Origin: a virus
Lineage: Duplodnaviria; Heunggongvirae; Uroviricota; Caudoviricetes
DNA: 30,950 bases
IMG/VR virus record: IMGVR_UViG_2695420421_000007
Strand: one strand, 5' to 3'
Shown: positions 3,123 through 28,935 of the stretch, one piece after another
Layout of the letters: each line of letters begins with the position of its first letter
Position numbering within the stretch: the stretch's first letter is position 1
Notes under the pieces: model-generated
Seen by the model: only the letters and a program-made list of their open reading frames with translations
Database searches by the model: none
What the model was told of the DNA's origin: nothing
Program-made: the position numbers and the translations under genes

Positions 3123-3668
3123 TCAGCCAACAAATTTAGCAACAAATACAGCAACCGCCGCTGTGAAAATGGTTGTGCACACTGGCACAATAATGCCACT
3201 CCAACGCCACTTCGTATTATCATCAACCTTGTCAAACCGCCGATTCATCTCATCCATAATCTTGTCAAAGCGTTTATCCATCGCTTCGGTAAGCTCACCC
3301 TTCAGGCTGTTAATGTCTGATTTGAGCTGCTCTTTCAGGTTAGCTGTATCAGATTTAAGCTCACCTTTCAGATTCGCAATATCGCATTCAAGATCACCTT
3401 TCAGATGTGCTATGTCTGCTTTGAGTTCACCTTTCACCTCACCAACATCGGCTTTAGTTGAGAGGTTTGTAGTGCGTTCAGCAAGCGTCGCAAGGTCGTT
3501 TCTTGTTAGCGATAAATCACCTTCGAGCCGCTCAATTCGCCTTTCAAGTTTATCTGACATTCCGCCTCCACTACTGCCGCCATCGCCACCATGATAAAGC
3601 ACATCACGCTCAGAATGCGACACACTACCTGCTGAATTACCGAAAAGATTTCTTGCTACATTACCCAT
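3123..3668 (-). CDS. Hendecad-repeat coiled-coil protein with C-terminal transmembrane anchor (about 181 aa); function unknown
   Basis: ORF track 3123..3677; preferred start is the ATG at 3668 (AGGA Shine-Dalgarno upstream), overlapping the stop of the upstream gene. Translation has five 11-residue LKGELKxDIxx-type repeats and a hydrophobic C-terminus GIIVPVCTTIFTAAVAVFVAKFV. AT-rich codons. Confidence 0.6.
   Translation of the reverse strand: MGNVARNLFGNSAGSVSHSERDVLYHGGDGGSSGGGMSDKLERRIERLEGDLSLTRNDLATLAERTTNLSTKADVGEVKGELKADIAHLKGDLECDIANLKGELKSDTANLKEQLKSDINSLKGELTEAMDKRFDKIMDEMNRRFDKVDDNTKWRWSGIIVPVCTTIFTAAVAVFVAKFVG
3291..3455. repeat. Five tandem 33-bp units inside the coiled-coil CDS
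   Basis: Units at 3291-3323, 3324-3356, 3357-3389, 3390-3422 and 3423-3455 share the core (a/g)AG(c/a/t)TCACC(c/t)TTCA on the plus strand; they encode the 11-aa repeats. Confidence 0.65.
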
Positions 3669-4161
3669 TATCACCATCCTGCGCTTTGTCTTTCTCCAAC
3701 CACTTCAGCACCGCAGACGTACGATAAAGGCTCAGGTAACCACAATTCAGGCAATGCAGCGTGTAATAAGTTTTGCGCATATCAGGTATGCTCTTAACAT
3801 CACCCAAAAAAGCATAAGATACATAATGCTTTATGTTCTCTTTAATTAACTCACTCTGTTCCTCCAGGGGTAGATTGTTAAAATTTTCTGGTTTCTTATT
3901 TTTATCCCAGCAAAGATCCATACTTTCTGGAACAGATAATCGCGACGATCCACATGAAGGGCAGACACTGGAGACCCCCTTCTCAGACAAGAAACGGAAG
4001 AAGATTTCTGGCGTAATCTCCATCAGCCGCTCTTTATGTTTTTTGACACGACTCATCGACTTCTTATTGATTTCATCAGCTTCTTCTTTGCATTTATCTT
4101 CTATATATTTCGATAGTAAATAGTCATATAACTCTTTTTTTGTAGGTTTTTTTATTTCCAT
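3661..4161 (-). CDS. Cys-cluster (putative zinc-ribbon) protein, 166 aa; function unknown
   Basis: Translation contains CPSCGS and CLNCG cysteine pairs, Lys/Glu-rich and AT-rich. ATG lies 2 nt after the int stop with a GGAGGA Shine-Dalgarno inside the int 3' end. Confidence 0.6.
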   Translation of the reverse strand: MEIKKPTKKELYDYLLSKYIEDKCKEEADEINKKSMSRVKKHKERLMEITPEIFFRFLSEKGVSSVCPSCGSSRLSVPESMDLCWDKNKKPENFNNLPLEEQSELIKENIKHYVSYAFLGDVKSIPDMRKTYYTLHCLNCGYLSLYRTSAVLKWLEKDKAQDGDNG

Positions 4162-4163
4162 AG

Positions 4164-5141
4164 TTACATTCCTCCCAAGGGATTAAACCTCACCGCATCC
4201 TGCAAGTAATCCGGCGCAAGATGGGCATAAATCATCGTTGTCTGAATCTTTGCGTGCCCCAGAATTTTCTGGAGCGTCAGAATATTGCCGCCGTTCATCA
4301 TGAAATGACTGGCGAAGGTGTGGCGCAGCGCATGAACAGCCTGGCCGTCAGGAACATCAGGTGCGACCGTTTTGATGACATCGCGAACCAATGAATAATC
4401 CAGCGTCGGAAACACCAGTTTCCCGCCCCGTTTTTTGATCTTTTCAAACAGGCTTTCAGAAATAGGAACGGTACGGTTTTTGCTGTTCTTCGTTTTTGAA
4501 AAAGTGATTCGACAATGAAGAACACGGCGCTGCTCCAGTGCCGCTACCTCGCCCCATCGCGCCCCGGTCGACAGAAGGATTTCGACGGCCAGCCGTTCAT
4601 CGGGATTTTCAGCCAGTGCATCCAGCAACTGAACACATTCAGACTTACTCAGATATCCCATTTCACGCTCGTTAACCTTCATTCCTTTAAGGCCTTGAAC
4701 GGGGTTATCGTTAAGAAAATGGCCGGATGAGATGAGTGCGGTAAACATCGCGCTTAACGCCCCAATCTCTCGATTTATGGTGCTGGGCTGTATCCCCTGC
4801 TCTATCCTGGACACACGTAGCTCGGTGAGCATCGTTGTATTAAGTTTATGCACGCACGGGTCATCCATTGCCTCACTCAAGCGCAGCAATTTAAGGCGCG
4901 TGTTATGCCCTGACTTCATTAGCTGGCCGTGGTATTTCCACCACAAGTCAATAAGCACTGACAGCGGACGGCGATCAATGGAGTTTCCTTTCCACTCATT
5001 GTTATGCTGTTGCGCCAGCACCCACCGCTCATATAAAACTGCATCCGATTTCGTTTTAAATTTTTTGCGAATGCGTTTGCCTTTACGCCCCTCAGGACGC
5101 ATGTCAAGAAGATACCCTCCCGGAATTGATTTTATGCTCAT
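4164..5141 (-). CDS. int: Tyrosine recombinase / phage integrase (P2 Int-like)
   Basis: C-terminal catalytic region HALRHTFASH ... LGHAKIQTTMIYAHL is the tyrosine recombinase R-H-R-Y signature. ORF extends to 5291, but the Met at 5141 (MSIKSIPGGY) gives a P2 Int-like length of 326 aa. Confidence 0.88.
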   Translation of the reverse strand: MSIKSIPGGYLLDMRPEGRKGKRIRKKFKTKSDAVLYERWVLAQQHNNEWKGNSIDRRPLSVLIDLWWKYHGQLMKSGHNTRLKLLRLSEAMDDPCVHKLNTTMLTELRVSRIEQGIQPSTINREIGALSAMFTALISSGHFLNDNPVQGLKGMKVNEREMGYLSKSECVQLLDALAENPDERLAVEILLSTGARWGEVAALEQRRVLHCRITFSKTKNSKNRTVPISESLFEKIKKRGGKLVFPTLDYSLVRDVIKTVAPDVPDGQAVHALRHTFASHFMMNGGNILTLQKILGHAKIQTTMIYAHLAPDYLQDAVRFNPLGGM

Positions 5142-5190
5142 TCGTGAAGCCCCAGCGTTACAAGACCACCATGCCCCCAGCGTTCCATGA

Positions 5191-5502
5191 TTAGCCGGGC
5201 TGTGTGCCAGTCTTGCGGGATTTTTGAGAAGACGATGTGTTTTCTGGCCCATCAGGGGAGAGAGAAGGACTGATCTGCCCAGCAGCCTCATTTGTTTCGT
5301 TACTCATCAACCACGTAGTGTATTTTTTAAATTCCGGGTGCATTGTGATTTTCAGTAAAACCTCCGTTCCCACACCTCGAATACCAGTCTCGTATTGCTT
5401 AACCGTACCAACCGCAATACCTATTGAATCCGCGAACTTTGCCTGACTAAGCCCCTCAGATTCTCGAATTGCTTTTAGCTTCTTTGATATCTCTATTGAC
5501 AT
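5191..5502 (-). CDS. C: P2 C-type immunity repressor (about 104 aa)
   Basis: From the internal Met (MSIEISKKLKAIRESEGLSQAKFADSIGIAVGTVKQYETG...TTWLMSNE...AGQISP) the translation parallels the P2 C repressor as recalled from memory (HTH, then a FTKYTLWFM-like block). Divergent from the early operon, upstream of int. Confidence 0.78.
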   Translation of the reverse strand: MSIEISKKLKAIRESEGLSQAKFADSIGIAVGTVKQYETGIRGVGTEVLLKITMHPEFKKYTTWLMSNETNEAAGQISPSLSPDGPENTSSSQKSRKTGTQPG

Positions 5503-7936: not shown

Positions 7937-10759
7937 ATGACGGCAGAGTACATCAGGGACTGGCAACAACCGCGCCACGCAGTGGGGCGTGAAGGAACGG
8001 GGATCCCCGCTCCTGAATCCGCGCTTTCCTCCTGGCTGGATGCCCACCGGGCAGAGAACGAGCGCCGCCAGGAAATGGCTGATGCGGCGTTCTCCGCCAC
8101 GCCACTGGGCAACCTGATTAATAAAAGCCTGGACGCACAGGAAAAACAGGACAAAACCATCACACTGGCAGGAGACGCCAGAAAACAGGCACGCGGCGCG
8201 GTGGATGAAGCCATGGCCTCGCTGCGCCTGCTGCCGTCCTATCTGCGCGATCCGCTTATTCGCCACCTCTCCTTCCTGCGCAAAAAACAGGAAGCCGATC
8301 GCCGGAAAGGCAAAAAGAGCTGGCAGGCGGAACGCTATGCACGCGGAACCCTGCGCAAAATATTCGAACGTCTGGATCGCACTGACGGACACTGGCTGAC
8401 ACCGGGTTATCGCTCCCTTGCCGGACGTGAACGCCTGGACGATTTGCTTTACCTGCCGCAACTCAACAAACACCAGATACAGACGCTGGCCACCATGACG
8501 GCGGCGATGTTCAGCAGCACCTTCGAAAAACTCTGCGATGGTTTTGGCGCGACTGATGGCGAGCTGACCATGGATGTAACGCTGAAGGCGTATCAGATGC
8601 TGGCCCGCATGGCGTTACACTTACACGCCATGCCTCCGCATTATGACGCACTGACAACAGACAAAGACCGGAGGCACGAACCGGACACAGAACTGCTGCC
8701 GGGCGCAATCCTTCGCCTGACCTGTGCGGAATGGTGGAAACGCAAACTGTGGCTGTTACGTTGCGAGTGGAGAGAAGAACAACTTCGCGCCGCCTGTCTG
8801 GTTTCCAGAAAAACATCGCCCTATCTGAGCCAGGACGCGTTAAGCGAGTTTCGCGCACAGCGCGAGAAAACACGCGATTTCCTGAAAAGTTTCATGCTGG
8901 AAAATGAAGACGGGTTCACGATTGATCTCGAGACGGTGTATTACGCGGGAGTAAGTAACCCGGTTCACCGTAAGGCAGAAATGATGGCCACCATGAAGGG
9001 GCTGGAACTTCTGGCCGAAGCCCGTGGCGACAAAGCGGTGTTTCTGACTGTCACCTGCCCGTCAAAATACCACGCCACAACGGAGAACGGTCATCCGAAT
9101 CCCAAATGGAACGGGGCCACAATGCGCGACTCCAGCGATTACCTGGTTAACACGTTTTTTGCGACGGTCCGCAAAAAACTGAACCGCGACGGCCTGCGCT
9201 GGTATGGCATCCGCACGGCGGAGCCTCACCATGACGGCACCGTGCACTGGCATATGATGGTCTTTGCTCATCCGGAAGAAATCGACACCATTGTGTCCCA
9301 CACCCGCGATATTGCCATTCAGGAAGATCGTCACGAGCTGGGCGATGACATAACTCCGCGCTTTAAGGCGGAGTATGTAGACGGCTCAAAAGGCACGCCA
9401 ACCAGCTACATCGCCACCTACATCGGGAAAAACCTGGACAGCCGCGCCGTGGATGGCATCGACCCGAAAACGGGCAAGCCACGCGTTGACCACGAAACCG
9501 GAAAATCAATGGCCGAGAGCGTGGAACGCGCCATCGGCTGGGCGCGCCTTCACCGGGTCCGCCAGTTCCAGTTCTTTGGCATCCCCTCCCGCCAGGTATG
9601 GCGTGAACTGCGCCGCCTTGCCAGCCAGATGGCACGCAACCCGGAAGGCCCGCAACGGCTGAAGGATGACGCAATGGATGCGGTTCTTGCCGCCGCTGAT
9701 GCCGGATGTTTTGCCACCTACATAGAGAAACAGGGCGGCGTACTTGTTCCACGCAAAGACTACCTGATTCGCACCGCCTACGACCTCGCCGATGAGCTGA
9801 ACGATTACGGCGAACAGAGCGTACAGATTTACGGGATCTGGTCACCACTCATCGGGGAATCCTCCCGTGTGTGCACGCATCCGGATAACTGGAAGCTGGT
9901 AAGACGCAAACCGGAAGCGGAAGACAGCGCCCGCGAAAATGGTTTTGACCTTCAGGGCGGCCCTGCCGCCCCTTGGACTCGTGGCAATAACTGTCCCCGT
10001 GTACAGGAAACGGACAACAACGGGACAGAACAGCCGGAAGAACGGCCAGCACCGTGGCCGCAGCTCCCTGACGGCGTTGATGTGGATGAATGGATGCGCT
10101 CACTGAAACGGCACGAACGCCGGGCGCTGATGCGTTCGCTTCGTGACAAACAGGCAAAAAACAGCAGTGATGAAATGCAGAGCTGGACACAGAGCCGCAA
10201 ACAGCAGCGGCCTTTGCCTGATAACCACGAATTACTCGCTAAAGAATGGCGGGAGTCTGCTGAATCTCTCGGCCTGCATATCGGTGAACAACAGATGCAG
10301 CACCTGTTACGGGGCGGCAGTCTGTACGTTGACGGCAGCATCATTGCACCGCAGGGATTTGAAATTGTACGCAAACCGGATACCCGCCCGGACAGCCGAA
10401 TCACGCAGCTCTGGCAGCGCCTGAGCCGTAATCATGGCGTAAGCAGCACGGAGATCCGCCATAACCCGGTCGCCAGCTATCTGACACAGCTGGGGGCATC
10501 AGACCCTGAAGCCGCCGCACGCCTGGCATCCACACTTCAGCAGGACCAGAACACCATGAAAACACCCGTTACCGTGCTTTCTGACATGCTGCGCGCCATC
10601 CGCGACGCAGAGCACGCACAGAGAATCAGTGAAACCACTGAACGCGCCCGCCGCAAAGCAGACCTGCTGCGGGGTGGCCTGACCAGTGGAAACAAAAAAC
10701 AGACAGAAACGGGACTCACGAATCCCGTAAATGAGCAAAAAACGCGCAGCGATATATGA
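7937..10759 (+). CDS. A: Replication initiation endonuclease, P2 gpA family (940 aa)
   Basis: Large last gene of the early operon; contains an HxH block (HWHMMVF) and a downstream Tyr cluster (YIATYIGKN), read as the metal-binding and catalytic-tyrosine motifs of rolling-circle initiators of P2 A type. The C-terminal roughly 180 aa look like an acidic/basic low-complexity extension. Confidence 0.8.
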   Translation: MTAEYIRDWQQPRHAVGREGTGIPAPESALSSWLDAHRAENERRQEMADAAFSATPLGNLINKSLDAQEKQDKTITLAGDARKQARGAVDEAMASLRLLPSYLRDPLIRHLSFLRKKQEADRRKGKKSWQAERYARGTLRKIFERLDRTDGHWLTPGYRSLAGRERLDDLLYLPQLNKHQIQTLATMTAAMFSSTFEKLCDGFGATDGELTMDVTLKAYQMLARMALHLHAMPPHYDALTTDKDRRHEPDTELLPGAILRLTCAEWWKRKLWLLRCEWREEQLRAACLVSRKTSPYLSQDALSEFRAQREKTRDFLKSFMLENEDGFTIDLETVYYAGVSNPVHRKAEMMATMKGLELLAEARGDKAVFLTVTCPSKYHATTENGHPNPKWNGATMRDSSDYLVNTFFATVRKKLNRDGLRWYGIRTAEPHHDGTVHWHMMVFAHPEEIDTIVSHTRDIAIQEDRHELGDDITPRFKAEYVDGSKGTPTSYIATYIGKNLDSRAVDGIDPKTGKPRVDHETGKSMAESVERAIGWARLHRVRQFQFFGIPSRQVWRELRRLASQMARNPEGPQRLKDDAMDAVLAAADAGCFATYIEKQGGVLVPRKDYLIRTAYDLADELNDYGEQSVQIYGIWSPLIGESSRVCTHPDNWKLVRRKPEAEDSARENGFDLQGGPAAPWTRGNNCPRVQETDNNGTEQPEERPAPWPQLPDGVDVDEWMRSLKRHERRALMRSLRDKQAKNSSDEMQSWTQSRKQQRPLPDNHELLAKEWRESAESLGLHIGEQQMQHLLRGGSLYVDGSIIAPQGFEIVRKPDTRPDSRITQLWQRLSRNHGVSSTEIRHNPVASYLTQLGASDPEAAARLASTLQQDQNTMKTPVTVLSDMLRAIRDAEHAQRISETTERARRKADLLRGGLTSGNKKQTETGLTNPVNEQKTRSDI

Positions 10760-10801
10760 AGCGCGCACAAAACAGGCAAAAACGGGATTTCAGAATCCCG
10801 T
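10709..10801. promoter_or_regulatory. Pair of near-identical 20-bp palindromes (ACGGGAyT-N4-AATCCCGT) about 73 bp apart, spanning the A stop and the parM-like upstream region
   Basis: 10709-10728 ACGGGACTcacgAATCCCGT and 10782-10801 ACGGGATTtcagAATCCCGT, each within the same AAAAACGGGA...GAATCCCGTAAA context. Confidence 0.35.
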
Positions 10802-10835
10802 AAACGATTAATTAATCAACATAAGGAAAAGCGAC

Positions 10836-11795
10836 ATGAAAATTTGTATCGACGACGGCTCCACCAACATCAAGCTGGCATGGACTGAGAACGGCGAACG
10901 CCGCAACGCCATCAGCCCGAACAGCTTCAAGTCGGAATGGTCTGCGCCGTTCGGTGGCATGCAGCCCGCGAACTACATGCTTGATGGCGTGCGCTATGGT
11001 TTTGATCCGGTCAGCGATCGCTTTGTCCAGACAACCGACACGCAATACCAGTACAGCGATGTAAATGTCATTGCCATTCATCACGCGCTGGTCAAATCAG
11101 GCATCACGCCACAGGAGGTGGATGTGGTTGTCACCCTGCCACTGAGCGAGTATTTCGACACAAACGCACAGCCGGACATGGCCAACATCAACCGCAAAAA
11201 AGCGAACGTTATGCGCCCGGTGGAGTACCAGAACGGCGAAGCATTCACTATCCGTAACGTGCGGGTTATGCCTGAATCCATTCCGGCTGGCTTTAAGGCA
11301 CTGGCTGACATGAGTCCGTTTGAATCCCTGCTGATTGTGGATTTGGGCGGAACCACGCTGGATGTGGCAAAGGTTCAGGGGCAACTGGCAGGTATCAGCC
11401 AGGTGTTTTGCGATCCACACGTAGGCGTTTCTCTGATGGCCGATGCCGTACTGTCGGTGATGGCCACTAACGGTATGCGCACCAGTCACCACATCGCCAA
11501 TACCATTATCGAACATCGCCATGATGAAGCCTGGCTGCGCCAGCACATCCACAATGACGCGCATTACGCCAGCCTGATGGCGGTTATTCGTGAAAAGGAA
11601 GAAACACTGAAACAACGCGTGATCCGCGCGCTGGCGGGTTTTTCGGGTTACGGGCGGGTGATGGTTGTCGGTGGAGGGGCGGAGATTGTGGCACCCGCTA
11701 TCCGCGAAGCCTGCGGAGTTAATGCGACTTTCATCGCGGACGGGGTGCCACAGTTTGCTCTGGTTAATGGGCTGTACGCAATGGACAAGGAGTAA
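10836..11795 (+). CDS. ParM/StbA-like actin-family ATPase (319 aa)
   Basis: N-terminus MKICIDDGSTNIKLAW and internal blocks (YQYSDVNVIAIHHAL, VDLGGTTLDVAKV, VPAGFKA) parallel plasmid R1 ParM as recalled from memory; strong Shine-Dalgarno AAGGAAAA upstream. Confidence 0.8.
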   Translation: MKICIDDGSTNIKLAWTENGERRNAISPNSFKSEWSAPFGGMQPANYMLDGVRYGFDPVSDRFVQTTDTQYQYSDVNVIAIHHALVKSGITPQEVDVVVTLPLSEYFDTNAQPDMANINRKKANVMRPVEYQNGEAFTIRNVRVMPESIPAGFKALADMSPFESLLIVDLGGTTLDVAKVQGQLAGISQVFCDPHVGVSLMADAVLSVMATNGMRTSHHIANTIIEHRHDEAWLRQHIHNDAHYASLMAVIREKEETLKQRVIRALAGFSGYGRVMVVGGGAEIVAPAIREACGVNATFIADGVPQFALVNGLYAMDKE

Positions 11796-11799
11796 ACCA

Positions 11800-12111
11800 A
11801 TGACGACACCAACCAGACGGATAAGTTTCTATCTGAAGCCTGCGGCCGTCAAGAACGAAAGCGAAGCATGCGCCTGGCTGGGCAGCCTTACACCAGAAGC
11901 CCGCAAAAGCGGCCAACGCGTGGCTTTTCTGGCCGGGCTGGCACTTCTGAAAATGAATCCAGCAGAGGCTTACCGACTGGCTGCATGGGCTGACGATGAG
12001 GCGTTATCGGTGACACAAACCAGGACAGAACGCCCCGTGCCACAGCCAGTACCAACCGCACAGATAACCAGTCAGATAGCAGGGAATATCCGGGCATTAT
12101 TTCCTGAATGA
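11800..12111 (+). CDS. Hypothetical protein (103 aa) in the ParR-equivalent position
   Basis: ATG at 11800 preceded by AAGGAG that overlaps the parM-like stop. No recognisable motif; assignment is by position only. Confidence 0.5.
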   Translation: MTTPTRRISFYLKPAAVKNESEACAWLGSLTPEARKSGQRVAFLAGLALLKMNPAEAYRLAAWADDEALSVTQTRTERPVPQPVPTAQITSQIAGNIRALFPE

Positions 12112-12171
12112 CGAATTTGACGGCTTTTAATTTTATCGGGGTGCACTGTCGCCCCGCACGAGGAAAACACG

Positions 12172-12696
12172 ATGAAAAAATACGAATACATGCTAATGAA
12201 AGAAGCACTGCGGGCTGGTCTGGCTCCCTGTCCTGTATCCGTAGAAGCTGTTGTTGGGAACACGATTTTCCGAACGCTGCGAAATCGCGTATCCGTGAAG
12301 ATGGTTCACCAACCACCCAAATCTACCAGCATGATCTATCTGCCGCTGCCCGAGGCTATCAAACTTATGCGTTCGCTGAAATTTGCGATTTGGATGCAGA
12401 CACAAATCAACAAAGCGGTGCAAAACACCTTCGTTAAGAGACTAATACCGGAGCTTGCTGCCAGATGTGCAAAATGTACCAGACCCGCACTTCAATTTGA
12501 TCTGTCATTGATTCAACAAGCTACGGAGGCAGAACTGTACCGCCTGTCACCTATCCGTGATGCTCACACGGAAGCATCAGAAATGTTCCGGCTCATGTTT
12601 CAATTTAATTTTGCCGTTCGACGCACACGCGTTCAGGTCAATCGCATGATGCAGGAGCAGGAAGAGTTAACACAGTACAAAGGGGGCAGCCAGTGA
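12172..12696 (+). CDS. Hypothetical protein (174 aa), cos-proximal cargo
   Basis: ATG with GAGGAAAA Shine-Dalgarno; preceded by a small GC hairpin (about 12134-12152). No recognisable domain. Confidence 0.55.
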   Translation: MKKYEYMLMKEALRAGLAPCPVSVEAVVGNTIFRTLRNRVSVKMVHQPPKSTSMIYLPLPEAIKLMRSLKFAIWMQTQINKAVQNTFVKRLIPELAARCAKCTRPALQFDLSLIQQATEAELYRLSPIRDAHTEASEMFRLMFQFNFAVRRTRVQVNRMMQEQEELTQYKGGSQ

Positions 12697-12932
12697 GTAA
12701 TTCAGCACGACTACAGCTTGGTTTTTCACCGCTATCAAAAACCATCGTATTGGCAAAAATGCGTGACTTAGGAGACGGAACAAAACGCCGCGTAGGAAAT
12801 GATCGCGGTCGCGATGTAACCAACGAGGCCGCTCAACTCGTTTGGCATCTAGTCATGGCAGAAGGCGGTGAAATTAATTGGGAGCTGGATGATGGTTCTC
12901 GTATGATTTTGAGGGCCGAGAAGAGTAAATAG
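12693..12932 (+). CDS. Hypothetical protein (79 aa), translationally coupled to the upstream gene
   Basis: GTG start overlapping the upstream TGA (GTGA). Confidence 0.45.
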   Translation: MSNSARLQLGFSPLSKTIVLAKMRDLGDGTKRRVGNDRGRDVTNEAAQLVWHLVMAEGGEINWELDDGSRMILRAEKSK

Positions 12933-12946
12933 CTCAAGGGGGATTA

Positions 12947-13132
12947 ATGCTAAATGATGATGAAGAAGAGCTGCTTATGCAGGAATGGTCGCTCGGTGAT
13001 TATGATAATGGTGAAAATGGGTGCCCGCATTGTGGCCGTTATCGTTTATGTATCTGCCAGAATGGAAAACACAGATGTGAAAAGTGCAATTGGTCTCCGG
13101 AACTTAATGACTACGTGCCGATCGAGTGGTAG
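12947..13132 (+). CDS. Small Cys-rich (putative zinc-ribbon) protein (61 aa)
   Basis: AAGGGGG Shine-Dalgarno then ATG; translation contains CPHCG...CIC...CEKC. The overlapping ORF 12954..13148 is rejected in its favour. Confidence 0.5.
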   Translation: MLNDDEEELLMQEWSLGDYDNGENGCPHCGRYRLCICQNGKHRCEKCNWSPELNDYVPIEW

Positions 13133-13139
13133 AGGTAAG

Positions 13140-13620
13140 TCACACTAGGTGTTTTTTAGTTGATTTTATAAATGCACAATAGTGCACAAATTTGCACAAT
13201 TTTTTTGAACGACTTTTTGCCCTTCCGGCCCGCGTGGCGGCTGGATCCGTCAAGGATCCGTGCATGCACAAAAAAACGCGTTTTTTCTGCGCGCAGGTGA
13301 CGGGGGAACAGCCCGCGTTTCAGGGGGTAAATAGCATTCCCTGAACGATGTCGCAGAGATACAACAGAATGGCTGTATTTCTCACGCTGAGCGTGAAAAA
13401 GACGTGAGGGCTTTTGATTTGATGGGGTGAAAGGTAAGGCCGTCAAAATCGCACTGAGACGGCGAGAATATGCAGTCAACGAGGTGGGATTGCGTAAGAG
13501 TCTGACTGTCGATGATGGCAATCAGCAGGAAAGCGTCGTGAAATTATCTGACTGATACAGGAGCTGGAGAGTCGGGGCATAAATTTTTTATGCCCCGGCG
13601 AAGCAGCAGACAAGCGAAGC
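13140..13620. other. Non-coding cos-proximal region (candidate cos / packaging site) between cargo genes and portal gene
   Basis: About 480 bp without credible ORFs in the position P2 cos occupies next to Q. Contains a triple direct repeat TGCACAA (13172-13200), a tandem GGATCCGT repeat (13242-13260) and the perfect palindrome AAAAAACGCGTTTTTT (13271-13286). Confidence 0.4.
13574..13596 (-). terminator. Perfect hairpin downstream of the portal gene (possible terminator of the leftward P-Q operon)
   Basis: GGGGCATAAA-tttt-TTATGCCCC inverted repeat 28 bp past the Q stop; no clean T-run, so terminator function is uncertain. Confidence 0.35.
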
Positions 13621-13623
13621 GCG

Positions 13624-14670
13624 TCAGGATGTGGGCTGGGTGTCTAACAGTGCGTAAGGGTTAAAGCGGATCACCTCTTCGCCAAGCCAGTCATTGATGT
13701 GCTTCATGGCCTCCATGACGGGCATCAGCTCGTTAATTGCGTAAACCCGCGCGGCCTTCTCCACATCACCAAACGCACTTTTTTCGCCCGGCATCGCCCC
13801 CATCAGTTGCGGCGGAACGCGGTGCGCAGCCAGCACATCATCACGGGATGCCGCCTTAACATTCATGAACTCATCCTTTGCGGTGATCTGCTGGAACGGC
13901 AAAATTTGCACCCCCTCTTTGCCCCCGTTGGGCGCATGAATGAGCACGTTTTTAAACGCACCACCACCACGTGCCCCCTGTAGCGTTTCTTTCAGGGAGT
14001 CCATGCTTTCGCGGTTTACCTGCGCTGCACCGATGTAGATGATGCACCCGGCGTGGGATCCGTTGTCGTAGTACAGTTTTCTGAACATGTCCGCCGAATG
14101 AGAAAGGCTGGCCGAGAGTAATGCGCCAAGATATTCCGGCATGCCGTAGATTTCCTGGTTAATATCCGGATTCATCAGGTGGCACACTTTGCCAGGACGA
14201 AACTGAAACGCATCCTTGCCATCCTGCACATACCACCATGATTCAAGATCGCTTCCGCGTCGCATGTATTTCGCCAGGGCGTGCCGTAATTTAAGCGGTT
14301 CGCCGAGCATATTGCTCCGAAGCTCAAGGAATGCGTTACCGAACACAAACCAGTCCAGCGCCAGCGCCGAGAAATCCTGCCGGGAAAGCAGCGGGTGCGG
14401 AATATAGCAGCCGAGCAATACATTGCGCTTAAAGTAAAGCGCAGACTGATGCCAGGACGTTTGCCGGGCAGCTCTTGCCAGACCGTACCAGTCCACCGGG
14501 GTTTCATACCACCGCCCGTTATCAGCACAGTACATATTGTCCAGCAGGTCATGCCCGGTCAGGCGGTAAGGACCATCAAATGTGAATGCACTGAGCGACG
14601 ATTCTTTCCTGAGCGCATCAGCGAGATCAATGCGTGAACTCATGCGCACTTTTTTATTTTTTCTGCTCAT
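13624..14670 (-). CDS. Q: Capsid portal protein (P2 gpQ-like, 348 aa)
   Basis: Translation parallels P2 Q as recalled from memory (WYE.PV...GLAR, LDWFVFGNAFLE, PDINQEIYGMPEYL, VIRFNPY..LDTQPT); start overlaps the P stop. Confidence 0.88.
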   Translation of the reverse strand: MSRKNKKVRMSSRIDLADALRKESSLSAFTFDGPYRLTGHDLLDNMYCADNGRWYETPVDWYGLARAARQTSWHQSALYFKRNVLLGCYIPHPLLSRQDFSALALDWFVFGNAFLELRSNMLGEPLKLRHALAKYMRRGSDLESWWYVQDGKDAFQFRPGKVCHLMNPDINQEIYGMPEYLGALLSASLSHSADMFRKLYYDNGSHAGCIIYIGAAQVNRESMDSLKETLQGARGGGAFKNVLIHAPNGGKEGVQILPFQQITAKDEFMNVKAASRDDVLAAHRVPPQLMGAMPGEKSAFGDVEKAARVYAINELMPVMEAMKHINDWLGEEVIRFNPYALLDTQPTS

Positions 14671-16421
14671 CAGAACTCCATAACCGTGAAACGCTCGTTT
14701 TCTCCTTCGCCGCCAATCGGTTCGTTAATGACAGCAAGCATGGTTGCCCACGCAAGGTCGCCGTGGCTGATCCCCCTCGCGCGGTCCGTTTCGTAAGTGA
14801 TAAAACCGCCCGGTGTTTTCACCTTACGCACGGCGTTAAAGGCCGCAACCAGCTCGCGTTCGGCGCGATCGTATTCCCACCGCCCGGCACGCATTATTTG
14901 CAGCATTTTCAGTACCAGCGACCGTTTTGATGACAGCGTGAAGGTGTAAGGGATGGCGGCGGGAAAAAACCGTTTCACTATCTGATAGACGGCATCCCCG
15001 TGCCCGCCCGTCGCATCAATGCCGATGTGTTCCACGTTGTAGCGATACGTGAACTCTTCAATAACTCTGGCCTGCTCTTCAAATTCCAGCCCCTGAACGC
15101 GTCGCGTCTCCACCGTTCTGAAACGACCACCAGGAACAGCCGGAGGAACCACCACGGACACAGCGCCGCTGTCGCCGTTACCACTGCTGCCGTTTGCGTC
15201 ATACCCAATCCATACCGGACGATTCCCCATCGGGCGGGGGGCAAAGGGTTTCCAGTCTTTCCAGTCGTCGTATCCGTCAACACCGCAGCCAATCAGGATA
15301 TTCAGGTTAAATGCCGATTCCCCTTCGCGGACAAACTCACACATATAGAGATTGCGGAACTCGTCTTCGGTGTTTTCATCACGAATTTCATCAATATCGG
15401 TGTGTTTCCAGCCGTGATTAACCACATCTTCCAGCGTGACAATTTGCCGCCACGTCCGGTCAGGGCAGATAAGCCCGTTATGCAGCGTTTTCCAGTCCAC
15501 AGAAAAACGCTGGCGTTTATGCGCGGCCTTTTTCTCGTTCCAGCGGTCGCCGTTCCAGTAGGCGTATGCCTCGTGCGTTTCGGTGGATGGCGTGGAGAAG
15601 CAGGTGCGCCGCAGTCCGCTGAGGGTTGCCATAGCGCCAGCCACCTTGCGCAGTTCAGCAAAGCGACTGACCCAGAAAAATTCATCAAAATAAAAATTGC
15701 CCGTGTAAGATTGCGCCGTCGCAGCAGAAGTGCCGAGAAAATGCATCTCTGCGCCGTTGGAGAGGATGATTTTATCGCCCCCTTTCAGCTCCACATCGAC
15801 TTCAGCCGCGGCCTTCTGAATAATGCTTTTAAACTGGAACGCCTGACGACGCGACGCAGACAAAAAAATCTGGTTACGCTGGTAAGGTTGTGCCACATCG
15901 TCACGCAGCGCCATCAGCAGTGCTTCCTGTGCAAAATACCAGGTCGCCCCAATCTGTCGGGATTTCAGGATCATCCTGTTACGTATCCCGGCTTCCCTGC
16001 AAAGCGTCAGGGAGTCAAACCAGCCCCGCTGATGCCACTCCAGCCTGCTGATGATTTTTTCCCGCAGTGCGGCAATCTGTTCCGGCGTGAAATGATTTTT
16101 GAGTTTTTTCGCCCGGCCTTTCTTTCCTGTGGCCGTCGCATCCGGCTGGCCATCATGCAGTTTTTTAAGCTGCCGGGTCAGCAGGTCTATTTCCTTAAAG
16201 TCACCACCTGTTTTATTCTGTTTTTCAGTAAGCTGGATGAGGCGCGCATCGATGGACTGCGTGACACGCTGCACGGGTGGCGTTTCATCCCACTGGTCGC
16301 GTTTTTTCCACGCATAAATCGTGTTCGGGTTTATTCCCATCAGACGTGATATTTCTGCGGGCGGATAACCCTGCCAGTAAAGTTGCCGCGCACGCTGGCG
16401 CACAAAAGCGTCCTGAATCAT
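14670..16421 (-). CDS. P: Terminase large subunit / ATPase (P2 gpP-like, 583 aa)
   Basis: Size and synteny (divergent from O, upstream of Q) match P2 gpP; translation is consistent with a terminase ATPase/nuclease. Confidence 0.88.
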   Translation of the reverse strand: MIQDAFVRQRARQLYWQGYPPAEISRLMGINPNTIYAWKKRDQWDETPPVQRVTQSIDARLIQLTEKQNKTGGDFKEIDLLTRQLKKLHDGQPDATATGKKGRAKKLKNHFTPEQIAALREKIISRLEWHQRGWFDSLTLCREAGIRNRMILKSRQIGATWYFAQEALLMALRDDVAQPYQRNQIFLSASRRQAFQFKSIIQKAAAEVDVELKGGDKIILSNGAEMHFLGTSAATAQSYTGNFYFDEFFWVSRFAELRKVAGAMATLSGLRRTCFSTPSTETHEAYAYWNGDRWNEKKAAHKRQRFSVDWKTLHNGLICPDRTWRQIVTLEDVVNHGWKHTDIDEIRDENTEDEFRNLYMCEFVREGESAFNLNILIGCGVDGYDDWKDWKPFAPRPMGNRPVWIGYDANGSSGNGDSGAVSVVVPPAVPGGRFRTVETRRVQGLEFEEQARVIEEFTYRYNVEHIGIDATGGHGDAVYQIVKRFFPAAIPYTFTLSSKRSLVLKMLQIMRAGRWEYDRAERELVAAFNAVRKVKTPGGFITYETDRARGISHGDLAWATMLAVINEPIGGEGENERFTVMEF

Positions 16422-28335: not shown

Positions 28336-28935
28336 ATGCGTAAAGTTTGTGCAGCAATTTTGTCCGCAGCCATCTGTCTGTCCGTATCCGGTGCGCCTGC
28401 ATGGGCGTCTGAACATCAGTCCACACTGAGCGCGGGGTATCTTCATGCCCGTACGAACGCTCCCGGCAGCGATAATCTGAACGGGATTAACGTGAAATAC
28501 CGTTATGAGTTTACGGACGCGCTGGGGCTGATTACGTCCTTCAGTTATGCCAATGCTGAGGATGAGCAAAAAACGCACTACAGCGATACCCGCTGGCATG
28601 AAGATTCCGTGCGTAACCGCTGGTTCAGCGTGATGGCGGGGCCGTCTGTACGCGTGAATGAATGGTTCAGCGCGTATGCGATGGTGGGTGTGGCTTACAG
28701 CCGTGTGTCGACTTTCTCCGGGGATTATCTCCGCGTAACTGACAACAAGGGGAAAACGCACGATGTGCTGACCGGAAGTGATGACGGTCGCCACAGCAAC
28801 ACGTCTCTGGCGTGGGGGGCTGGCGTGCAGTTTAACCCGACCGAATCCGTGACCATTGACCTTGCTTATGAAGGTTCCGGTAGTGGTGACTGGCGAACGG
28901 ATGCATTTATTGTTGGTATCGGATACCGTATCTGA
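28336..28935 (+). CDS. lom: Lom outer-membrane protein (Ail/Lom family, 199 aa)
   Basis: Signal peptide then beta-barrel-type alternating pattern with C-terminal ...GIGYRI; lies after J as in lambda. Confidence 0.85.
   Translation: MRKVCAAILSAAICLSVSGAPAWASEHQSTLSAGYLHARTNAPGSDNLNGINVKYRYEFTDALGLITSFSYANAEDEQKTHYSDTRWHEDSVRNRWFSVMAGPSVRVNEWFSAYAMVGVAYSRVSTFSGDYLRVTDNKGKTHDVLTGSDDGRHSNTSLAWGAGVQFNPTESVTIDLAYEGSGSGDWRTDAFIVGIGYRI

Follow-up and report, generated by a model that had tools for sequence, protein, structure and literature searches.

The window analyzed here, a 30,950-nucleotide stretch of DNA recorded in IMG/VR as IMGVR_UViG_2695420421_000007, spans a stretch of enterobacterial chromosome and an integrated P2-family prophage. 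Immediately after the replication gene A of this prophage lie two genes, parM and parR, which together with a pair of upstream repeats appear to make up a complete type II (ParMRC) partition module of the plasmid R1 type. The molecular identity of the two proteins as ParM and ParR can be asserted with high confidence. Regarding function, we see about an even chance that this module serves to separate or position extrachromosomal circles of the phage genome, with no stable plasmid prophage involved.

ParM and ParR are encoded by adjacent genes downstream of A

The first gene of the pair, parM, occupies positions 10836-11795 of the plus strand, begins with ATG and directly follows gene A. Profile searches against Pfam and PHROGs and alignment with R1 ParM identify its 319-residue product as an R1-type actin-fold segregation ATPase. 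The StbA_N domain of Pfam covers residues 1-157 (expect value E = 2.7e-82) and the ParM C-terminal domain PF21523 covers residues 159-316 (E = 1.3e-68), the protein matches PHROG 691, labeled 'partition protein' (E = 3.4e-90), and it can be aligned end to end with the solved R1 ParM (1mwk, E = 8.5e-93). Over the full length, it is 47% identical to the ParM of plasmid R100 and 52% identical to that of an IncL/M plasmid. The nucleotide-binding blocks IDDGSTNIKL, MPESIPAG, DLGGTTLD and GGGAE are the same in the window protein and in R1 ParM, and both ParM domains are present with intact phosphate-1, catalytic, phosphate-2 and adenosine motifs, as is characteristic of type II systems. A match to ALP_N reached only 25.7 bits (cut-off 26.3) and lies beneath the much stronger ParM match. 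A scan of genome contigs with ParM returned just three loci, all at least 98% identical, and no distant phage relatives. A ParM of 98% identity is present on a 226-kb contig (NZ_JBQPOM010000071.1, locus L007) assigned to the Gram-positive 'Vagococcus sp. WN89Y'; this contig is most likely enterobacterial DNA contaminating the assembly.

The second gene, parR (11800-12111, plus strand), encodes 103 residues and is predicted to specify the centromere-binding adaptor of the system. Only 4 nucleotides separate the parM stop codon from the parR start, and an AAGGAG Shine-Dalgarno sequence is located within the last parM codons, an arrangement indicative of translational coupling between the two genes. 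The product matches PF10784 (Plasmid_stab_B, E = 2e-23), a family that is matched by the R100/R1 ParR (E = 2.6e-30) and likewise by the IncL/M ParR, as well as PHROG 2515, also labeled 'partition protein' (E = 2.3e-56). A profile of ParR alleles reaches the solved ParR of plasmid pB171 (2JD3, E = 9.6e-4) over residues 9-79. Among alleles that share 42-88% identity, the N-terminal strand RRISFYLKP, predicted to read the DNA, is invariant and the helix QRxAFLAGLAL near-invariant, while the linker is hypervariable. The C-terminal motif (A/K/E/D)NI(R/Q)xxFP(E), with which the window copy terminates (...NIRALFPE), is kept in all alleles, and the ParR C-terminus aligns with the C-termini of the R100 and IncL/M proteins. 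An AlphaFold2 model of the ParR monomer, based on an 11-sequence alignment, had a mean predicted local distance difference test score (pLDDT) of 55, lacked the N-terminal strand and was too poor for a fold search, as expected because the fold is an obligate dimer; the best local confidence in this model was attained at residues 87-100, which are predicted to form a helix. The predicted plan of an N-terminal domain of the ribbon-helix-helix type, a linker and a C-terminal helix corresponds to that of a ParR adaptor and, combined with the identity of ParM, confirms the assignment of the pair as ParM and ParR.

An earlier note on this DNA, made from the letters and their open reading frames, had pointed to a 319-residue ParM-like ATPase followed by a 103-residue gene in the position of ParR, and had named profile searches of both proteins as the way to check it. 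The coordinates it gave for the two reading frames are exact, and the Pfam, PHROG and structure-based matches detailed above bear out both assignments.

Two palindrome-bearing repeats constitute a candidate parC

Directly upstream of parM, a repeat search identified two 42-nucleotide direct repeats (10693-10734 and 10766-10807) that are 81% identical and 73 bp apart. These repeats are a candidate for the parC site of the system, or ParR operator, of which they would constitute the left and right halves. Each harbors an 8-4-8 palindrome with the common form ACGGGA(Y)T-N4-AATCCCGT. Palindrome 1, retrieved through an inverted-repeat search, reads ACGGGACT-CACG-AATCCCGT and spans positions 10709-10728 in repeat 1, and the perfect palindrome 2 in repeat 2, ACGGGATT-TCAG-AATCCCGT, spans positions 10782-10801. 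Within the 30,950 bases of the window, the extended pattern AAACGGGAYTNNNNAATCCCGTAAA is confined to 10707-10731 and 10780-10804, and no match to it was obtained in 100 shuffles. The AAA tracts over positions 10690-10810 are phased at 10.5 bp, with a score reached by only 1 of 2000 shuffles. We infer that ParR binds to these palindromes.

The repeats straddle the end of gene A. Repeat 1 encodes the last 22 codons of A, and the stop codon of A (10757-10759) falls in the 31-nucleotide spacer between the repeats (10735-10765), together with symmetric blocks rich in GC (ACGCGC...GCGCGC). The tail of the A product, ...KKQTETGLTNPVNEQKTRSDI*, is shared with an unrelated 155-residue open reading frame in the IMG/VR locus L041. 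Repeat 2 is followed on the plus strand by a leader (10808-10835) with the ribosome-binding site AAGGAA (10823-10828). This leader is the best-conserved non-coding stretch, with a heterozygosity of 0.026 versus 0.054 at parM third codon positions. Elsewhere in the window, another ACGGGATT / AATACCGT arm pair, with a 7-nucleotide spacer, is found at 28481-28503, far from the par module, and is probably an unrelated hairpin.

The module is a separable unit and the constant part of the A-Q interval

Across 86 related loci, homology ends at the parR stop codon, which places the right edge of the module there. The left edge falls at position 10694, at the start of repeat 1, in two independent contexts: in E. 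coli SWHEFF_58 the cassette follows an A gene of only 31% identity, an extra open reading frame and a 69-nucleotide remnant, and in L041 it follows the different 155-residue reading frame, which simply runs on into this tail. In strain ECN24, where a different system comes after the P88-type A gene, homology breaks off at 10659, ahead of the repeat; loci that lack parMR also lack the repeat-bearing tail. These edges therefore identify the moving unit as repeats-parM-parR (10694-12111), which is the parC-parM-parR layout. The alternative in the earlier note that the phage captured a partition cassette is supported, and this cassette, of type II, is also a separable module, found behind different upstream genes in SWHEFF_58 and L041.

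The same note had located the cassette in the cargo slot of an integrative P2-like prophage. The location holds, since the cassette lies between A and the cos/Q end, but the cassette is not the variable part of that slot. Of the 1372 E. coli genomes that possess this 3' end of A, 1287 have parM attached to it, whereas in 74 loci the 400 nucleotides after parR represent 23 unrelated types. Within the A-Q interval, parMR therefore forms the inner portion that stays constant, and the swappable, hypervariable cargo is located between the parR stop codon and Q.

ParM is under strong purifying selection

Over 73 unique alleles, the ratio of nonsynonymous to synonymous polymorphism (pN/pS) of parM is 0.06, with heterozygosities of 0.006, 0.005 and 0.054 at codon positions 1, 2 and 3, and the gene is intact, without internal stops, in all 87 copies. 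ParM is thus under strong purifying selection. parR is moderately constrained (pN/pS of 0.33-0.41), and the C-terminal third of gene A presents a pN/pS of 0.26. The possibility that the cassette is a decaying relic was considered and is ruled out by the selection data.

Of 5426 complete E. coli genomes, 1308 carry the cassette, among them O157:H7, O145, O104:H4 and ST131 strains. It maps in these genomes to 1456 places, 1454 chromosomal and 2 plasmid, always beside a 'replication endonuclease' gene. Among 50,697 phage records, R1-type ParM is found only in P88-like phages and in phage D6. A tblastn search of plasmids with ParR returned no genuine plasmid match, all seven matches being phage copies inside plasmid records, and for this reason neither a plasmid donor nor a plasmid target can be named.

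Inferred expression and proposed role of the module

A promoter scan between A and parM detected no consensus sigma-70 promoter, and manual inspection revealed only poor hexamers. The genes from A through the cargo are all co-oriented, up to a terminator-like site at 13182-13205. Given this shared orientation and the lack of a consensus sigma-70 promoter, the simplest reading is co-transcription of parMR with A, most likely as part of the early lytic operon.

P2-family replication generates monomeric double-stranded circles, which are the substrate for packaging. In the mechanism that we propose, the cassette would be expressed together with A from the early lytic operon, and ParR dimers would bind the two palindrome-bearing 42-nucleotide repeats that straddle the A stop codon, which would act as parC and operator. 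The conserved C-terminal helix of ParR would then capture the ends of ATP-ParM filaments, and filament growth between two ParR-parC complexes would push sister DNA circles apart. The system would be active only on the free circular genome, either between infection and integration, or after excision, while A drives rolling-circle replication. Monomer circles would in this way be dispersed or positioned and passed to daughter cells, with a possible gain in replication, packaging or lysogenization. Our confidence that the biological role of the module is exerted on extrachromosomal circles is moderate. A narrower formulation makes ParMRC a part of the replication module itself, with a minimal two-palindrome centromere overlapping the end of A, expression from the early operon and segregation of rolling-circle monomers; we advance this formulation only tentatively.

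Several observations weigh against the proposed role. The candidate parC comprises only two palindromes (four half-sites), as compared to the ten 11-bp iterons of R1, and each of the two also scores as a terminator-like hairpin on the minus strand. Conservation of the repeats does not exceed that of synonymous sites, with heterozygosities of 0.037-0.080 versus 0.054-0.091, and at such shallow divergence it neither backs nor refutes a binding site. A weak or non-sigma-70 promoter is possible, and with it expression in the lysogen; published EHEC transcriptome and proteome data and O157 proteome data yielded nothing usable on the CP-933T ParM and ParR. Finally, a partition system is not obviously of use in a cell that will lyse.

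Alternative explanations

The idea that the cassette allows P88-like phages to be maintained as extrachromosomal plasmids of low copy number, at least under some conditions or in some hosts, was suggested by Rousset et al. (2022, PMC9122126), and an episomal or phage-plasmid phase had also been contemplated in the earlier note. Such a phase would be in line with a par module that is complete and under selection, and the only other phage with an R1-type ParM in the 50,697 records, D6, is a P1-like plasmid prophage. Moreover, a 34,461-bp circular record in PLSDB (NZ_CP148288.1; loci L003, L091 and L092) comprises a whole P88-like genome, with its integrase and an intact attP junction. This record, which was deposited as plasmid pZ1323PEC0009-2 and in which a hok/gef gene and a DNA methyltransferase adjoin attP, is however equally explicable as excised or induced phage DNA assembled from culture. 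There are only one or two such phage-sized circular records, a 26.8-kb Shigella record being partial. When a 900-nucleotide query across the attP junction of the circular record was matched to 442 complete E. coli genomes sharing its att type, the unsplit junction was found in none of them, and the listed matches break near query positions 431/432, as expected of integrated copies. Adding to this the chromosomal location of 1454 of the 1456 cassette places, an episomal phase finds almost no support in the genomes. Integrase is also present in every full copy examined, and the rolling-circle endonuclease A is the only replication gene, with no plasmid-type replicon or copy-control module seen. 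The window copy itself is integrated next to btuC and carries an integrase, rather than being an autonomous, usually non-integrating replicon with a plasmid replication module, like the plasmid prophages P1, D6 and N15. The idea of a stable plasmid is hence weakly supported, and we regard a phage-plasmid phase as unlikely.

We attach lower probability still to a function exerted in trans within the lysogen, whereby ParR, ParM and parC would interfere, through partition incompatibility or repression, with incoming DNA bearing the same centromere, be it from related P88-like phages or from plasmids, or would operate as an anti-phage system. The A-Q interval is a documented anti-phage hotspot (PMC9122126), and the palindromes could be operators. 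No PADLOC model, however, matches ParM, ParR or the three downstream open reading frames, which leaves the suggestion in the earlier note of interference with incoming phage without support. No plasmid target is evident, as ParR has no tblastn match on genuine plasmids, and no lysogen-type promoter was recognized. Simple titration or repression, moreover, requires no strong selection on a ParM ATPase with fully conserved motifs. Unlike true cargo, the cassette remains constant while its neighbors swap, so that it presents neither the family match nor the swappable presence of the anti-phage defense systems of this hotspot, such as old, tin and retrons. The lowest probability among the readings weighed here falls to one in which the palindromes are transcript hairpins or antisense terminators that insulate A from leftward transcription, leaving ParMR idle or acting as an orphan on the host chromosome, with the real ParR site elsewhere or missing. 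It would account for the minus-strand terminator-like character of both palindromes, in which a stem is followed by a T-run, and for their folding better than shuffles (z of -2.7 to -4.1). Yet the 74 unique sequences contain no compensatory double changes, and one-sided changes are predominantly of the C.A type in hairpin 1 (37/40) and of the G.T type in hairpin 2 (43/49). The two hairpins therefore favor opposite strands, and no single transcribed strand keeps both. Their loops vary and their arms hold, as expected of a protein-binding palindrome, the repeats travel with parMR and not with A, and there is no minus-strand gene to the right within the module. An idle ParMR is in turn contradicted by the parM pN/pS of 0.06. 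The hairpin or terminator reading of the palindromes is thus less likely than their role as a ParR site.

Genomic setting and downstream cargo

The host genes nlpC/P60, btuD, btuE and btuC occupy positions 45-2930 of the window, and the prophage is inserted immediately downstream of btuC in this nlpC-btuD-btuE-btuC cluster. Its tyrosine integrase is encoded on the minus strand (4164-5291). Gene A (7937-10759, plus strand) encodes a replication endonuclease of 940 residues (Pfam Phage_GPA, E = 6.6e-131), and beyond the cargo lie the portal gene Q (13624-14670) and the terminase gene P (14670-16421). The nearest sequenced phages are Escherichia phage P88, Citrobacter phage phiSM and other Xuanwuvirus members (Peduoviridae), with 94-97.5% DNA identity over matching parts. 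Between btuC and the integrase (3123-4161, minus strand), two open reading frames of low GC content (~43%) encode a coiled-coil protein of 184 residues, weakly matching the coiled-coil parts of the LmuB and ZorA models, and a 166-residue protein with a weak Zn-ribbon match; these two genes may represent a second cargo site, at the int end. The 940-residue A protein is far longer than the 768-residue A of a P2-like prophage (L089), to which its alignment is limited to residues 96-708. Its C-terminal ~230 residues constitute an extension that is weakly constrained (pN/pS of 0.26 across the final 299 codons). In L041, the gene A region is divided into an 871-residue A and the 155-residue reading frame, which is Cys-rich.

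The variable cargo (12112-13205, plus strand) lies outside the module, homology among the 86 loci stopping at the parR stop codon. It comprises three co-oriented open reading frames between parR and cos/Q (12172-13132) and ends in the terminator-like hairpin at 13182-13205. The 174-residue product had no match in Pfam, NCBIfam, PHROGs or PADLOC, the 79-residue product belongs to DUF7446 (PHROG 1578), and the 61-residue product is a Zn-ribbon protein (PHROG 24897). The DUF7446 stretch (~12678-12923) is 80-91% identical to DNA of unrelated lambda-like, Yersinia and Salmonella phages, and is therefore a small moron common to several phage families. In a defective CP-933T-type prophage of E. coli O157:H7 F1273 (locus L002, 4947-5950), a frameshifted IS3 transposase and tail genes come directly after parR; deletion has removed the head genes and the A-Q cargo, and parM and parR are still intact.

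Comparison with known partition systems

The window cassette shares the gene order repeats-parM-parR with the ParMRC (StbA/StbB/parC) systems of the IncFII plasmids R1/R100 and of their IncL/M relatives, and the ribosome-binding region CATAAGGA is similar. Those systems reside on plasmids, whereas the window cassette resides on an integrated P2-family prophage. With 103 residues, the window ParR has a shorter linker than plasmid ParR proteins, which range from 116 to 147 residues, and its N-terminal strand reads RRISFYLKP instead of RTIAFKLNP. The parC of R100 consists of ten 11-bp A/C-rich iterons flanking a promoter; the window presents two 42-nucleotide repeats with 8-4-8 palindromes and no consensus promoter was seen there. 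Also unlike the R1/R100 parC, repeat 1 of the window lies inside the coding end of gene A.

Among phages, the P88, phiSM and CP-933T-type prophages (Xuanwuvirus) carry the same cassette, with 93-99% DNA identity over the module. Nothing material differs among these copies; the cargo after parR varies, and there are several parR alleles (52-93% identity). The R1-type ParM of D6, annotated as 'StbA type plasmid stability protein', is 48% identical to the window protein (E = 1e-91). D6 is a 91-kb P1-like plasmid prophage that needs partition for lysogeny, whereas P88-like phages integrate and have no such need.

By analogy, the closest functional precedent for the cassette would be the AlpA/AlpC system of the integrated Corynebacterium glutamicum prophage CGP3, which pairs an actin-like ATPase with a co-transcribed DNA-binding adaptor. 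The adaptor binds upstream of the operon that encodes it, and the system, switched on early after induction, acts on the excised phage circle, whose efficient replication depends on it (Donovan et al. 2015, PMC4446434). The likeness is functional only: AlpAC shares no family membership with the R1-type ParM of the window, and the two systems are also unlike in gene order, host phylum and phage type. For AlpAC the function has been established experimentally, whereas that of the window cassette is proposed from sequence.

Prior knowledge and significance

The cassette is already known and is annotated in more than 1000 genomes. In P88, phiSM and CP-933T-type prophages, parM bears the label 'plasmid segregation protein ParM' and parR the label 'partition protein / plasmid partitioning/stability family protein'. 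The Prokaryotic Genome Annotation Pipeline (PGAP) names the two genes ParM and 'plasmid partitioning/stability family protein', and PHROGs uses 'partition protein'. Rousset et al. (2022, PMC9122126) had already noted a putative partition system in about a quarter of P2-like phages, and the paper on phiSM lists the partition protein as a fitness factor (PMC6456863). We found no functional study of the cassette in the literature. The present analysis adds the boundaries of the module, a candidate two-palindrome parC overlapping the end of A, figures for selection and genome-wide evidence against a stable episome. If it acts as a centromere, the candidate parC would be a compact and naturally minimal one, of use for mechanistic work.

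It is not obvious what use a plasmid partition system is to a phage that integrates, yet the ParM of this phage is strongly selected. The function of the cassette bears on the published guess of a plasmid life for P88-like phages, and knowing it would tell whether cytoskeletal motors serve temperate phages in handling their DNA beyond the plasmid-prophage lifestyle. If the narrower formulation given above is true, the module could raise burst size, or could deliver phage DNA to both daughters of an infected or induced cell and thereby give rise to a transient carrier state. Rather than a device for plasmid maintenance, it would then be a Gram-negative counterpart of the AlpAC system of CGP3.

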